Positions 40,066-51,499 of a DNA stretch of 64,000 nucleotides are shown here, piece after piece. Under the pieces are notes generated by a model that ran no database searches, was not told where the DNA came from, and saw only the letters and a program-made list of their open reading frames with translations. The stretch is from Candidatus Pacearchaeota archaeon (lineage in GTDB: Archaea; Nanobdellota; Nanobdellia; UBA10117; JAFCGA01). The stretch lies in assembly GCA_017608345.1 (NCBI GenBank), contig JAFCGA010000002.1, positions 1,396 to 65,395 of the forward strand. The letters run 5' to 3'. Made by a program: the position numbers and the translations under genes. The stretch's first letter is position 1; each line of letters starts with the position of its first letter.

Positions 40066-40815
40066 TTATTTATTTTTTTGTAGTGCAAATACCCAGAATT
40101 TAGAATCTTCTTTTGGTTCTGTGAATTGATAATTATCATATGCTCCGATAAGTTCGAAATTAGTTTGAGCAATAATTTCTTTTAATTCTTCTAGGGTATA
40201 TGTTTTTATTAAGTTCTGTTCTTGGAATTCCCTTTCCTTAATCTTAGCTAATAATGTAACATATACTAAGGAGTGATCTTGCTCATCAAATTTTATAATC
40301 CATTTATATTTTAGTCCATTAACTTTAGTAAACTCAGAACACTTAGCGAATTTCCGTTCGTAGTCAATTCTTGGTTTGACATCGAAAATAAAAATACCCT
40401 CGATATTTAGCTGCTGATAAACTTCATTTAGGAAGCATATAAATTCCTCGCGGCGCAATATATGCGCCGTAGAAAAATCTAAACAAATTGCTGAATCAAA
40501 CTTGTCAGCAAGCACTATATTATAAAAAGATTGGTTAAATAATTTAATATCCAGTTGATGCTTCTTGATTTTCTCTTCTGCAATGTTTAACATATTTTTT
40601 GAGAGGTCTATTCCCGTGACTCTGATTCCGTCTTTTGCGTATAATCTTGCATTATTGCAAGTTCCACATGCTAGATCCAATAATGAATTCGGAATAACGC
40701 CTTGCTGCCGCCAAATTTCTTCTATGAACGCCTTCCATTCGCTATATTTTGAGTATTTCTGTACTTTATCATAAAATTTGCTAAATAGTTCATACTGCTC
40801 GGATGTCTTAATCAT
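40066..40815 (-). CDS. class I SAM-dependent methyltransferase
   Basis: LDLACGT, GIDLS..ML, G.FIFDV. Confidence 0.88.
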   Translation of the reverse strand: MIKTSEQYELFSKFYDKVQKYSKYSEWKAFIEEIWRQQGVIPNSLLDLACGTCNNARLYAKDGIRVTGIDLSKNMLNIAEEKIKKHQLDIKLFNQSFYNIVLADKFDSAICLDFSTAHILRREEFICFLNEVYQQLNIEGIFIFDVKPRIDYERKFAKCSEFTKVNGLKYKWIIKFDEQDHSLVYVTLLAKIKEREFQEQNLIKTYTLEELKEIIAQTNFELIGAYDNYQFTEPKEDSKFWVFALQKNK

Positions 40816-40858
40816 GCTTCGAACAAGTCAAGAAAGGTTTTAAAATATTTATAGAATT

Positions 40859-41023
40859 AAGAGTATTCTCGCCAAGTAGCCATTTTCTTTTCCAGACAGG
40901 AACTAGTTCCTGTTGGCCAAGAGAATCTGCGATTCTCTCTGGCTTTGCGAAAGAAAAGAAACTAGGCATCTAAAGAAAAGAAAGCATATTGTTCGCTTCG
41001 CTCAAGAGTATTCTCGCCAAGTA
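40859..41023. mobile_element. 125-bp palindromic (MITE/REP-like) insertion flanked by 20-bp direct repeats
   Basis: AAGAGTATTCTCGCCAAGTA at 40859-40878 and 41004-41023; hairpin modules at 40892-40916 and 40917-40942. Confidence 0.8.
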
Positions 41024-41331
41024 TGTTTACACTTAGTGCATCTAAAAAATTCTGTCTCGGGCTCGTCAGATGCGCGAGTTTGCAAGGACCAATGGTAGGC
41101 TTTGCTGTTACCGCATTTTTCGCAAGGCTCTTCCAAGCTAATTGTCGCTAGAGTCTGTTCTTCACCTTCTGAAACTCCTTCACCCTTTTGCTCATTAAAC
41201 ATCTTCTCAGAAACTTTGATTCTGGCATGTTTCGTAGAGATTTTTTCATTACAGCGAGGGCATTTTACTACTTGCTTTCCATTCTCTGTTGCCGGTACAA
41301 GTATGCTCCCGCATTTATCACAAAAATTCAT
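41002..41331 (-). CDS. tfs: transcription factor S (TFS, RpoM family)
   Basis: MNFCDKCG..L, CEKCG...AY.W..QTRASDEPET.F..C..C.HTWREY. Confidence 0.93.
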   Translation of the reverse strand: MNFCDKCGSILVPATENGKQVVKCPRCNEKISTKHARIKVSEKMFNEQKGEGVSEGEEQTLATISLEEPCEKCGNSKAYHWSLQTRASDEPETEFFRCTKCKHTWREYS

Positions 41332-41393
41332 TCTGGCTCTTTCCGAGGAACGATTAATATTTAATACTTTCTAATTCAAACCCGCTAAAACTA

Positions 41394-41562
41394 CTTTTTC
41401 TTTCTTGCAACCAAGCGAACTCCGTTCGCGTGGCCAAGAGAAAGCTCGCTTTCTCTCTGGAGAAAGAAAATCTATGCTACCAAGCGGAATGAAATTCCGC
41501 GTGGCCAAGAGAAATCGAAGATTTCTCTCTGGAAAGAAAGAAGCATATTACTCACTGCGCTC
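41394..41562. repeat. modular palindromic element with four CCA...TGG hairpins
   Basis: Hairpins at 41411-41433, 41434-41460, 41480-41504 and 41505-41532; terminus AAGCATATTACTCACTGCGCTC resembles that of the 40.9-kb copy. Confidence 0.85.
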
Positions 41563-41607
41563 GAAAATAAGCAATATTCTTAAAAACGCGCAAAGTAAGT
41601 ATATTCT

Positions 41608-42504
41608 ATGCCAACGAATGTATCTGTTTATTATCTCAAGGCGGAGATGGGCTATCATGAAGCTAAGACTACGCAGGAAAAGCTCAAGGCTCTTAAGCAC
41701 ATGCTTTCTTTATCTCCTGGGCACAAAGGTGCTGAGAAGCTTAGAAAAGATATTAAAGAAAAAATAAGAAAATTAAAATATCTGAAGGAGAAGGAAAGAA
41801 AGCAAGTTAAGCGTTCTGGGCATTCGATAACTGTTAAGAAAGAAGGCGCAGCGCAGATTGTTTTTGTGGGGATTCCTAACTCTGGCAAATCGACTCTGCT
41901 TTCTAAATTATCTGGCAAATCTATTAAAATAGCAGAATATCCCTTTACTACAAAACTACCTGCTGTAAAAATGATTCCTTTTGGGGGAATTAAATTGCAA
42001 GGCGTTGAAATTCCAGCGCTTTACGAAAAAATCGAGGAAAATTCCCGCGGTCGCCAGATGCTAGCTATAATCCGAACCGCAGATTTCATAGTAGTTGTTG
42101 CAAAAGAGCGGAAGTATTTGCAGCCAGCAAAAGATATTCTAGCAGAAGTTGGAATTTACCTCGGAGCTAAAACGAAATACAGAGATGGATTTATCGAACA
42201 TATTCCTTCCCTCGATGTTGTCGGAAAAGACTTTGATAATAAGAACTTGGTAAAGAAGATTTGGCTAAAGCAAGGAAAGATACGCGTTCAGACAAAAGCT
42301 CGCGGACAGAAAGCTGCTAAGAAGCCGGTTATTTTGAAAGAAAGGGGAACAGTTGAGCAGCTAGCTAAAATAGTCCATAAAGATTTTATTAAGAAATTTC
42401 GGTACGCTAAAGTCTGGGGTCCTTCTGCTCACTTTCCGGGCGAGAAAGTTGGCTTTGAGCATAAGTTGAAGGATAGGGACGTTGTTGAGTTGTTTATGAA
42501 ATAA
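41608..42504 (+). CDS. DRG/OBG family GTPase with TGS domain (short, divergent)
   Basis: P.HKG.EK, GIPNSGKSTL, YPFTT, YAKVWGPSA.FPG..VG..H.L.D.DVVE. Confidence 0.88.
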   Translation: MPTNVSVYYLKAEMGYHEAKTTQEKLKALKHMLSLSPGHKGAEKLRKDIKEKIRKLKYLKEKERKQVKRSGHSITVKKEGAAQIVFVGIPNSGKSTLLSKLSGKSIKIAEYPFTTKLPAVKMIPFGGIKLQGVEIPALYEKIEENSRGRQMLAIIRTADFIVVVAKERKYLQPAKDILAEVGIYLGAKTKYRDGFIEHIPSLDVVGKDFDNKNLVKKIWLKQGKIRVQTKARGQKAAKKPVILKERGTVEQLAKIVHKDFIKKFRYAKVWGPSAHFPGEKVGFEHKLKDRDVVELFMK

Positions 42505-49785: not shown

Positions 49786-51054
49786 ATGCCTTGGGCAACA
49801 GAAATACTTGATGCAGTTTATAACCGTCACATTGGGCTTAATGAGCTTGAATATGAGATCGTTAAAAGCCCTAGCTATCAGCGACTCAATCGCGTACGCC
49901 AACTCGGACTTACAACTATTCTAGTCTATCCTAATGCAGATCATACGCGATTTGCACACCCGCTTGGCGTTATGCATTTAGTTGGCGGCGTAACTGGTAG
50001 CAAATATTTGAATCTTTCGTCAGAGACTAGACAGTTCTTGAGAATTGCTGCTGAAGATCATGATCTCGGTCATGGACCATTTTCGCATCAGAGCGAGGCA
50101 GTATTTGCAGCTGTATCTGGGAAAGACCATGAAGAAATACTTCCGGATATCCTTAAGGAAGAGCAGGCAGATTTGCTAGCGGATCATGGGATTGATTATA
50201 AGAAGGTCGCAGCAGTTGCACGGGGGGAACTAATGGATTATTCTGAGCTAATTCGCGGTCATTTTGATTTGGATTATTTAGATTGCTTAAAACGGGATCA
50301 GTATTTTACTGGCGCGAGATACGGAGTCCATAATTTTTCATATTTAGTATCTGTAATTCAGTTCTATGAAGATGATGCAGGTATCCAAAGACTTGCAATT
50401 AAGGAAAAAGGCAGAGTCGCATTAGAACATTTCTTTGAGGCGAAGTCGCATATGTTTGAAACAGTCTACTTTCATCATACAAATCGGATCGCTGATAAAA
50501 TGCTTACTCGTGCGTTAGAAGAGTTAGTTTTATCCAAGTATGACCCGAAATCTTATGTTGCAACGGCGCGCAGATTTGACGACGCGCAGATGCAGGTTGC
50601 TCTCGAGAATGAAGGCGGACTAACGTCTGAGTTAATGCGCGGAATATTAGATAGAAAGCTGTTGAAACAGGCTAAGGGATTATACCTATCTAAGCCACAA
50701 GTGGATGCGTTAGACTCGGAATTATTTTCTAGCTTGGAGCGAATAAGAGAAGCGAACAAAATCCGTGAAGTTGAAACTCGACTAGCAGATAAATTTGGAA
50801 TTGATGAGGGATATATTCTTCTCGATATACCTTCGCCGCCGGAGAGAGATATTTCTGATGAATCTGTAACGTCTGATGAGCTATGTTTTGTTATGGATGA
50901 TGGATCACGTAAGCCAATTACAGAAGTTTCATCTGTGTTGAAGTTCTTAAAAGAAAATACTTGGTCTAATTGGAGATTTGGTGTTTATGTTCCTGAAACA
51001 CACAGAAATAATATTGCTGTAGATTCAGTTGTTAGAATATTAAGCGGTTACTAA
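49786..51054 (+). CDS. HD-domain phosphohydrolase (SAMHD1/dNTPase-like)
   Basis: QRL..VRQLG...VYP.A.HTRF.H, HDLGHGPFSH..E, D.LD.L.RD, VYFH. Confidence 0.9.
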   Translation: MPWATEILDAVYNRHIGLNELEYEIVKSPSYQRLNRVRQLGLTTILVYPNADHTRFAHPLGVMHLVGGVTGSKYLNLSSETRQFLRIAAEDHDLGHGPFSHQSEAVFAAVSGKDHEEILPDILKEEQADLLADHGIDYKKVAAVARGELMDYSELIRGHFDLDYLDCLKRDQYFTGARYGVHNFSYLVSVIQFYEDDAGIQRLAIKEKGRVALEHFFEAKSHMFETVYFHHTNRIADKMLTRALEELVLSKYDPKSYVATARRFDDAQMQVALENEGGLTSELMRGILDRKLLKQAKGLYLSKPQVDALDSELFSSLERIREANKIREVETRLADKFGIDEGYILLDIPSPPERDISDESVTSDELCFVMDDGSRKPITEVSSVLKFLKENTWSNWRFGVYVPETHRNNIAVDSVVRILSGY

Positions 51055-51055
51055 T

Positions 51056-51145
51056 TAGCCTTTTAGAAAACCAGAGAGAAATCTTCGATTTCTCTTGGCC
51101 AAGCGGAATGTTATTCCGCTCTGGAGGCTAGCGAAAAGAAGATAA
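51056..51145. repeat. third modular palindromic element, between convergent genes
   Basis: 51071-51098 is the exact reverse complement of 41505-41532; 51099-51124 resembles 41480-41504; enclosed by TAGCCT...AGGCTA. Confidence 0.85.
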
Positions 51146-51499
51146 CTATAATGCCTGGAGTTCTTTAGTTATTTTGTCTATTTTTTCTTCTTTATCTGGA
51201 CCGATTCCCAAACAAGTCATTGTGCCGGGTTTGAGTTCTGTGTGACCAGCGTCGGTGATTAAAGCGGATATTAAGTTAGCTTGCTTAGCTTTTTTATCAA
51301 AGTCTAAAAGCTCTTTTTTGTCAGCAACTCTGAGAACAACTTTCTTAGCGCCTTCTCGTCTCCAAGATTGTAGGAGCTTCTTATCTTTCTTTAGAACTTT
51401 GAGAGCTGATTCTAGTGAAGCGTGACTGCATTGCGCTGCAGTCTTACCTTTAGACATTTTAATATCTGCGCGGATGAGAATTACTTGTTTGAAGTCCAT
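51146..51499 (-). CDS. pth2: peptidyl-tRNA hydrolase Pth2
   Basis: KQV..R.D..MSKGK.AAQ..HA, W...G.KKVVL, DAGHTE..PGT.T..GIGP. Confidence 0.95.
   Translation of the reverse strand: MDFKQVILIRADIKMSKGKTAAQCSHASLESALKVLKKDKKLLQSWRREGAKKVVLRVADKKELLDFDKKAKQANLISALITDAGHTELKPGTMTCLGIGPDKEEKIDKITKELQAL

Follow-up and report, generated by a model that had tools for sequence, protein, structure and literature searches.

A double-hairpin repeat family that occurs between genes and within interrupted tRNA genes of a pacearchaeal genome

The 64,000-nt stretch of contig JAFCGA010000002.1 from a Candidatus Pacearchaeota archaeon that we analyzed (the window) holds, at three places, short hairpin-forming modules bounded by CCA and TGG, and we asked what these modules are, how they are built and in which surroundings they recur. 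An initial annotation, made from the letters alone, had described eight such modules of 23–28 nt in three loci, joined in pairs through TGGCCA and carrying compensating stems, and had proposed a structured repeat or RNA family assembled from interchangeable bricks. All eight modules were found at their positions, each pair was joined by TGGCCA, and every stem that had been listed was present in the sequence. The modules had also been described as shuffled and inverted between copies, and reverse-complementing the module at 41505-41532, with its loop, gives exactly the one at 51071-51098.

Reading of the sequence showed that the eight modules make up four double hairpins (DH) of 50–54 nt. In all four window copies the two hairpins abut directly at TGGCCA, with zero linker, and each hairpin is closed by three pairs, CCA/TGG. 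The third closing pair is followed by one unpaired base or one mismatch and then by a perfect 6–10-bp stem of free sequence; this irregularity always lies on the outer strand, that is, on the 5′ strand in the first hairpin but on the 3′ strand in the second. Two types of frame were recognized: CCAGA..TTGGCCAA..TCTGG, which is its own reverse complement, and CCAA..GTGGCCAA..TCTGG. In relatives the closing triplet covaries within a single hairpin (CCC/GGG, CGC/GCG, CCG/CGG), showing that each hairpin closes on itself, and for the same reason a fold that joins the first CCA to the last TGG was ruled out. The junction word varies in more distant copies (GGGCCC, GGGCGC, CGGCCA); TGGCCA at the junction is a structural trait of this lineage, not a universally kept word.

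Searched with a pattern of the frame alone, the 1.05-Mb genome yielded 26 matches; four of them lacked stems and were dropped, which left 22 hairpin pairs. A slightly wider frame pattern found 29 frames, and in 19 of these both stems were perfect and at least 5 bp long, whereas 20 dinucleotide-preserving shuffles of the genome gave 1–9 frames each and none with stems. A covariance model built on the 22 copies recovered all 22 and added two degenerate copies (C12:10750-10803 and C14:33705-33762) plus two weak ones, so that the genome, which is 88% complete, contains 24 good and 2 weak DH copies. In the 22-copy alignment, 93.6% of the cells pair compared with 76.8 ± 1.1 after shuffling, and none of 500 shuffles reached the observed value. 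Changes on both sides were seen in 13 of the 23 DH pairs, and there were 80 double-change cells against a single one changed on one side only. The covariation score was 0.437 versus 0.143 in shuffles (0/500 reached the observed value), and in a control in which the 3′ partners were slid by 1–3 columns it did not exceed 0.196. A covariation test and a covariance-model scan were the checks that the initial annotation had named; the first gave the score just described, and the second gave the 24 good copies here and matches in 18 of the 38 further genomes scanned within the order. The structured repeat of interchangeable bricks is thus a genuine family, and its fold is kept by compensating changes.

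The initial annotation had further proposed that the repeat or RNA family is selected for its fold. A G-U pair reads as an A-C mismatch on the complementary strand, and we counted both among the 1,079 model-pair cells that were Watson-Crick, G-U or A-C. G-U pairs numbered 8 and A-C mismatches 9: the 22 copies of this genome contributed 1 G-U, 4 A-C and 453 Watson-Crick cells, and 28 non-redundant copies of relatives contributed 7, 5 and 609, respectively. This balance means that the complementarity of the DH is kept equally on both strands. Within the tRNA introns of this genome, described below, DH copies read by eye lie in both orientations, two and two. The rarity of G-U pairs and the occurrence of both orientations in introns together indicate that the constraint is strand-symmetric, which purely RNA-level selection would not yield. 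Preservation of the fold was upheld, and selection at the RNA level was not supported. Strand-symmetric complementarity would be expected of a unit that has to fold in whichever orientation it is inserted.

A second repeat is built of a pyrimidine tract (Py), the purine tract that complements it (Pu1) and a further purine tract (Pu2), all A-rich, and is present in 52 modules genome-wide; the outer TTTCTTT/AAAGAAA stems noted earlier are part of it. When Pu2 was compared with Pu1, the mirrored match was longer than the direct one in 39 of the 52 modules, shorter in 2 and equal in 11, and with a required margin of at least 2 the comparison favored the mirror in 28 modules and the direct repeat in none. 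The two purine tracts are thus mirror and not direct repeats, and we discarded the ideas that they are alternative Watson-Crick partners or the product of a target duplication. No Watson-Crick pairing with Py is possible for a mirrored purine tract, and to our knowledge a triple helix of the purine motif is the sole structural rationale for such a tract. The order Py, Pu and 3′ mirror-Pu is that given for the class II intrastrand triplex motif in the portion of Holder et al. (2015, PMC4666352) available to us. Judged by sequence, the Py/Pu1/Pu2 module carries the signature of a class II intrastrand triple helix, and it may form one.

The gaps of this module were bimodal. Py and Pu1 are separated by 0–3 nt in 44 modules and by 46–55 nt in 8, with none between; Pu1 and Pu2 are separated by 4–15 nt in 44 and by 51–69 nt in 8. 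The long loops are mostly filled by a DH. By reading, 13 of the 24 DH copies were placed in Py/Pu1/Pu2 modules, 10 of them in the first loop and 3 in the second, and 11 in other contexts. The DH is a discrete insertion unit in the loops of this module.

The three window loci are free copies of this composite family (Table 1). The outer stems of the TTTTCTTT/AAAGAAAA type, which had been thought to close the modules into multi-way junctions, were predicted by folding tools that consider Watson-Crick and G-U pairs only to form three-way junctions at locus 1 (z -2.9) and locus 2 (z -4.1; more exactly -4.07, with 0 of 200 shuffles folding as well). The end that two loci had been said to share is a ...GCATATT...CGCTC tail, present at 40985-41003 and 41544-41563.

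Table 1. Positions of the repeat components at the three window loci (window coordinates)
Feature	Position	Strand	Remark
Direct repeat copy 1, orphan last six TFS codons and first stop-codon base	40859..40878	.	20/20 exact repeat of 41004-41023
Locus 1, 125-nt composite between two direct repeats	40879..41003	+	
Py of locus 1	40883..40891	+	Pairs with 40949-40961 in predicted fold
DH of locus 1, hairpins 40892-40916 and 40917-40942, in loop 1 between Py and Pu1	40892..40942	.	65.7-65.9 bits on either strand
Pu1 of locus 1, Watson-Crick partner of Py	40949..40961	+	
Pu2 of locus 1, mirror of Pu1	40972..40984	+	Longest shared run 13 mirrored vs 12 direct
Conserved tail of locus 1, CATATT...CGCTC	40985..41003	+	Same tail in other free copies and in tRNA introns
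Direct repeat copy 2, working 3′ end of TFS gene (41002-41331, minus)	41004..41023	.	
Locus 2, one Py/Pu1/Pu2 module with a DH in each of its two loops, plus tail	41394..41563	+	
Py of locus 2	41394..41406	+	
DH in loop 1 of locus 2, hairpins 41411-41433 and 41434-41460	41411..41460	.	55.4 bits
Pu1 of locus 2	41461..41470	+	
DH in loop 2 of locus 2, hairpins 41480-41504 and 41505-41532	41480..41532	.	67 bits
Pu2 of locus 2	41533..41543	+	
Conserved tail of locus 2, CATATT...GCGCTCG	41544..41563	+	
Locus 3, TAGCC, small T/A palindrome, DH and GGCTAGCGAAAA	51056..51137	+	Shorter form without purine tracts
DH of locus 3, hairpins 51071-51098 and 51099-51124	51071..51124	.	70.8 bits

Locus 1 directly follows the stop codon of the TFS gene, and its Py/Pu/Pu sense lies on the strand opposite both neighboring genes. 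A perfect direct repeat of 20 bp flanks it on both sides, the sole such case among the 22 DH copies; the orphan copy reads T W R E Y S on the minus strand, followed by its own TAA and then by an AT-rich region before the next gene. The repeat looks like an insertion scar. Locus 1 is ~81–82% identical over ~112 nt to copies on contigs C4 and C10, and the difference of ~18% between these long-form copies suggests that they are not recent. The TFS gene and the DRG-type GTPase gene diverge from either side of locus 2, which, judging from the TATA-like boxes, is probably upstream of both and in neither mRNA. The two genes around locus 3 converge and end 16 and 21 nt away from it, and the ends of the locus itself, TAGCC...GGCTAGCGAAAA, resemble the ends of T-loop introns in this genome (TAGCC...GGCTAGGAAAA). 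No tRNA parts flank the three window loci, which lie between protein genes, and on this ground we rejected the possibility that the window copies are archaeal bulge-helix-bulge introns in a tRNA or rRNA gene. Their predicted folds show no clear bulge-helix-bulge, and the exon-side partner of the central helix at locus 3 is weak. Genome-wide, 18 of the 22 DH copies are located outside every ORF of at least 90 aa, and such ORFs cover ~88% of the genome; the remaining 4 copies each overlap such an ORF, in our judgment probably a spurious or over-extended one.

The composites are also the body of large tRNA introns in this archaeon. Intact tRNA genes numbered 13 with ARAGORN and 14 above the cut-off with the Rfam tRNA model in the 88%-complete genome. 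Four DH neighborhoods, read by eye, lie in interrupted genes for tRNA-Glu(CTC), tRNA-Ala(GGC), an anticodon-GTT tRNA (tRNA-Asn) and tRNA-Gly(TCC). The tRNA-Ala gene has three inserts, in the D-loop, at 37/38 and in the T-loop, one of which contains a DH. After in-silico removal of the three inserts, ARAGORN called tRNA-Ala(GGC) in 1,398 of 7,104 boundary combinations, a test that covers tRNA-Ala only, the other three tRNAs having been read by eye with putative splice sites. Inserts occur in D- and T-loops as well as at 37/38, with several per tRNA gene. The filling of tRNA genes by DH and modules explains that standard tRNA finders recover only 12–14 tRNA genes here.

The T-loop introns of five tRNA genes have a common scaffold, ...TTCAAA, AGCC, Py, Pu1, CCCTSGGG, Pu2, ...GGC, ...GAAAA, in an alignment whose first 66 columns were computed and whose remainder was aligned by eye. 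Three of the five have no DH, and two have one at the same point, with exact CCA...TGG ends. Comparison of filled and empty scaffolds among these five introns revealed no visible duplication at the DH. T-loop inserts start directly after TTCAAA and end with GGAAAA or AGAAAA before the last T-loop base, and from the known geometry of the bulge-helix-bulge these borders would fit an intron at 59/60. By a script pattern, 9 of 51 modules have a T-loop-like exon end directly upstream on their own strand, as does one more read by eye, but 0 of 51 have one on the opposite strand; the Py/Pu1/Pu2 module is co-oriented with the tRNA. The genome encodes an archaeal TFS and a single EndA gene, and the inserts would be removed from the tRNA precursors by splicing.

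We examined the distribution of the family with the covariance model. By family of the order, the 18 positive genomes out of 38 were distributed as f3 13/17, f4 1/1, f7 1/1, f8 3/6, f5 0/11, f2 0/1 and f6 0/1. In a class-wide sample, the DH was found in 7 of 18 genomes of the order versus 2 of 132 outside it, both of them weak. Within the genome set, the closest relatives belong to the same order only; among metagenome contigs the best protein identity was 48%. The model gave no match on 363 kb of related metagenome contigs, and among 79 metagenome loci of the DRG-type GTPase (best identity 48%) none adjoined TFS and none contained a DH match; neither the genome set nor these contigs yielded an orthologous site with and without the DH. 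Rfam at a loose threshold gave no match at the DH loci of 20 relatives, a search that is blind to split tRNAs, and some of these loci hold tRNA halves. The DH frame, the position of the bulge and the zero-length junction are kept across four families of the order, and the stems vary.

The abundance of the DH tracks the disruption of tRNA genes. Across the 39 genomes of the order, those with a higher DH load tended to have fewer contiguous tRNA genes (Spearman -0.67; within f3, -0.74), although the compared genomes are kin and the correlation and its p-values overstate independence. The median number of tRNAs was 10 in genomes with at least 6 DH matches (n=15) and 31 in those without DH (n=20). 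One genome of the order, G003, was an exception, with 29 DH matches and 39 intact tRNAs. Three strict DH sites were found among the 7 loci examined in it, none with tRNA flanks. A genome with many DH copies and intact tRNAs suggests that the DH can multiply without tRNA introns.

Comparison with known families and mobilizing enzymes gave negative results. Rfam at the gathering score gave no match over the whole window, and at E <= 10 the regions 40800-41650 and 50980-51220 produced matches at chance level only (6–20 bits against cut-offs of 35–117). A blastn search against plasmids and phages found no match to the DH, in keeping with the initial annotation, which had recognized no described family. 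The strict DH frame had no match in viral contigs. A CRISPR array was ruled out because the copies are scattered across 10 contigs with differing stems and irregular spacing. In an exact-match screen, only 1 of the 22 copies had a flanking exact repeat above background, the 20-bp repeat at locus 1; there is no regular target-site duplication. Searches of the 88%-complete genome for the Y1 transposase (PF01797), TnpB (PF07282) and reverse transcriptase (PF00078) gave none. In the limited literature collection that we searched on tRNA introns, DPANN, Woesearchaeota and repeats, we found no account of such a DH repeat. The genome also encodes two tyrosine recombinases.

What, then, is this family? 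We lean toward the view that it is a selfish, self-folding, non-coding DNA repeat that seeds tRNA introns and spreads within the lineage. It would be built in two layers: a strand-specific triplex-type module that forms the body of tRNA introns, plus the DH, which would insert into the loops of the module and elsewhere in either orientation. The family would be tolerated because it folds on itself and, inside a tRNA precursor, does not get in the way. Removal of the composites would fall to the tRNA splicing endonuclease, acting at a bulge-helix-bulge motif at their base, and between genes a composite would be neutral, or at most a hairpin at the end of a transcript. In this view the DH would be mobile. 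In favor of it are the discrete-unit behavior of the DH, its presence in tRNA genes, its distribution, the correlation with tRNA disruption, the many copies beside intact tRNAs in G003 and the scar at locus 1. Against it are a flanking direct repeat at only 1 of 22 copies, the negative searches for transposases and reverse transcriptase in the 88%-complete genome, the ~18% divergence of the long-form copies, the strong conservation of frame and bulges, the kinship of the genomes behind the correlation, to which G003 is an exception, and the overlap of 4 copies with ORFs. A bolder version, which we put forward tentatively and consider rather improbable, is that the module with its DH passenger is a self-propagating 'introner' system of DPANN archaea. 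Excised intron RNA or its DNA copy would then re-enter tRNA loops, rRNA and the ends of protein genes, and the 3′ tail would supply the intron-side half of the bulge-helix-bulge, so that each T-loop insertion would be born spliceable. If true, archaeal tRNA intron gain would have its first concrete vehicle, and it would be explained why tRNA genes fall apart in exactly those genomes in which the repeat multiplied.

The same data can be read as those of a functional RNA motif. The DH would be a three-way-junction platform for a host protein, for example the splicing endonuclease or its partner, which would help to fold, splice or stabilize the long introns; the DH would likewise mark processing sites at mRNA ends, with the free copies being cut out of transcripts. 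The conservation of frame, bulge position and zero-length junction in four families alongside variable stems is strong, and a host function or a protein partner could account for it equally well. Many free copies lie 12–40 nt past a stop codon, the ends of locus 3 are like those of T-loop introns, and the Py/Pu/Pu module is always co-oriented with the tRNA (9/51 and one by eye, against 0/51). On the other hand, the DH itself is oriented both ways in tRNA introns (2 and 2), G-U pairs are no commoner than A-C mismatches (8 vs 9), locus 2 lies between diverging genes and would be upstream of both likely promoters, and the Py/Pu/Pu sense of locus 1 is opposite to both neighboring genes. The N-terminal tail of EndA, which has 65 residues in this genome and is longest in the DH-richest genomes, seemed to favor a protein partner; a shorter version is also present in genomes with 0–3 DH matches, and the tail, occurring outside DH-bearing genomes as well, was discarded as evidence. 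We consider a functional RNA motif unlikely.

Strand symmetry also fits an element that would act as DNA, in which the palindromes would form cruciforms and the mirror tracts H-DNA, and which would act on replication, recombination or chromosome organization or be the site of a DNA-binding protein, much as bacterial REP/BIME do. Complementarity with almost no G-U, the lack of a preferred DH orientation, the palindromic junction TTGGCCAA in 12 of 22 copies (read from the alignment) and the position of locus 2 between two promoters all agree with this, and mirror repeats are the classical requirement for H-DNA according to the part of PMC4666352 consulted. The strict co-orientation of the module with tRNA genes, however, is unexpected for a pure DNA role, and the junction sequence varies in distant copies (GGGCCC, GGGCGC, CGGCCA). 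Stems of 9–13 bp with loops of 3–6 nt are also short for stable cruciforms, and we regard a role of this kind as distinctly unlikely. A classical miniature transposon (a MITE or an IS200/IS605-type palindrome) moved by a hairpin-recognizing transposase seems very unlikely. In its favor are the two imperfect hairpins with a bulged base, the many dispersed copies in both orientations and the terminal inverted CCAGAG/CTCTGG frame, read from the alignment in 12 of 22 copies; but neither the Y1 transposase nor TnpB was found in the 88%-complete genome, target-site duplication is not regular, and the strict frame is missing from viral contigs, with no plasmid or phage match to the DH. Moreover, hairpins that a transposase binds normally keep their sequence, and here the stems vary from copy to copy.

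A selfish, self-folding repeat, the reading that we prefer, has relatives in kind among several known systems. REP/BIME are dispersed palindromic repeats with paired hairpins in either orientation, as is the DH here, although in this case no RAYT or other Y1 transposase was found and the stems vary with compensation rather than staying conserved. Rickettsia palindromic elements are tolerated in frame inside genes, a situation to be compared with that of G003, the genome with many DH copies and intact tRNAs. Eukaryotic Introner elements are a repeat family that creates introns, but the splicing system here is the archaeal endonuclease and not the spliceosome.

Double-hairpin elements are known from Allomyces mitochondria, and hairpin-forming repeats from sponges and fungi (PMC2800124, citing Paquin et al. 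2000). According to the sections of that paper available to us, the mitochondrial elements lack regular flanking duplication, and its authors suggested an RNA intermediate (PMC2800124). Like the DH, they are small non-coding repeats of adjacent hairpins, intergenic, in compact genomes, patchy among relatives and without regular duplication. They differ from the archaeal family in being organellar and unrelated in sequence and, as far as those sections go, in not being known in triplex-type modules or tRNA introns. The bacterial TMECO class II triplex repeats, in the portion of PMC4666352 that we consulted, resemble the Py/Pu1/Pu2 module in the order of Py, Pu and a 3′ reverse-Hoogsteen mirror Pu, in their two short loops and in being repeated. 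In contrast to them, the tracts here are A-rich and not G/C-rich, the host is an archaeon, the modules are co-oriented introns inside RNA genes, and the loops carry a DH.

In this lineage, archaeal tRNA intron material is recognizable as a repeat family with two nested parts that can be counted across genomes. The repeat is found within tRNA genes and away from them, and it is more abundant where tRNA genes are more disrupted. The arrival of introns remains an open question in the accessible part of a 2026 preprint on Asgard tRNA introns (10.64898/2026.10.13.758758), and the family offers a concrete starting point for learning how archaeal tRNA introns are built and how they spread, and makes that question testable. 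We found no report of a free-standing counterpart of a tRNA intron repeat in the literature searched. A mobile-element model proposed for Caldiarchaeum is one near published case, as far as the excerpt of PMC3293823 goes. Another is formed by the transposed bulge-helix-bulge tRNA introns at non-canonical positions in Thermoproteales and by the pre-tRNA intron at 59/60 in ARMAN-2, as described in the excerpts available of PMC3239211 and PMC4090602. With these the present introns share sites in D- and T-loops in addition to 37/38, several introns per gene, sequence common to different tRNAs and a single EndA. They differ, by the account in those excerpts, in that the intron body here is a defined modular repeat that also stands free between genes and at gene ends, and that can be followed by a covariance model across the order.

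The archaeon whose genome (G000) carries the double hairpin (DH; 50-54 nt, two abutting hairpins framed by CCA...TGG and joined at TGGCCA) encodes a single splicing endonuclease, EndA, which is alpha-type and bears a low-complexity N-terminal extension. We compared EndA lengths in a set that includes one gene truncated at the edge of its contig. All eight DH-rich genomes examined have an EndA of 223-245 aa; in eight further genomes, which form a mixed group, the protein spans 197-218 aa, and in the 11 genomes where DH hits number 0-2 it spans 155-188 aa. The length of the extension tracks DH load across the genomes examined, a relationship that is confounded by phylogeny.

The junction word itself is under-represented in the archaeon's own genome (G000). 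TGGCCA occurs there 102 times, against about 138 occurrences expected from base composition, and DH junctions account for about a quarter of these, so that outside the repeat the word stands at roughly half its expected frequency.

Several copies lie close to genes. In the window, the 125-nt composite element beside the TFS gene is flanked on both sides by an identical direct repeat comprising the final six TFS codons plus one base, the distal copy being an orphan that is not translated and is followed by a separate stop codon. Because a 10-nt core of this repeat is nearly self-complementary, the two copies can pair with each other in the predicted plus-strand fold. At three other copies, the DH is immediately preceded by about 38 nt of shared, conserved sequence, in which complementary segments alternate (A, B, A', B'), suggesting from sequence a pseudoknot-like arrangement; each of these three copies lies 21-52 nt ahead of a start codon. 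In another genome of the same order (G003), two abutting copies (50 + 2 + 53 = 105 nt) are found between uS12 and uS7, in a reading frame that stays open into uS7. The pair may therefore be translated within a Lys/Glu/Pro-rich N-terminal extension, or may instead be located in an open spacer.

Positions of the features described
Feature	Location	Related copies
EndA gene	G000 C6:48841-49578	loci L061-L087
Exact direct repeat of TFS gene end	window 40859-40878 and 41004-41023	
Conserved ~38-nt stretch upstream of DH	L018:163-200 (G000 C2:135160-135197)	beside DH copies in L023 and L027
Tandem DH pair between uS12 and uS7	L314:529-1461 (G003 C5)	
Long-form copies L014 and L026	G000 C1:38736-38860 and C10:43880-44013	
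Triple hairpin	G000 C1:63425-63504	
Repeated hairpins around degenerate DH	G000 C14:33550-33850	

Variation was also seen in the repeat itself. Past the CATATT motif, two long-form copies (L014 and L026) have in common another conserved tail of about 45 nt, which is not present in the window copies. Elsewhere in G000, three consecutive CCA...TGG-framed hairpins lie 2 nt apart instead of abutting; a looser DH relative, this array matches the DH covariance model only weakly (25.8 bits). Further repeated hairpins with a common TTTGATTTTTGGTTATAAACTTTCCG-like flank surround a degenerate DH copy, showing that G000 holds additional hairpin repeat families.
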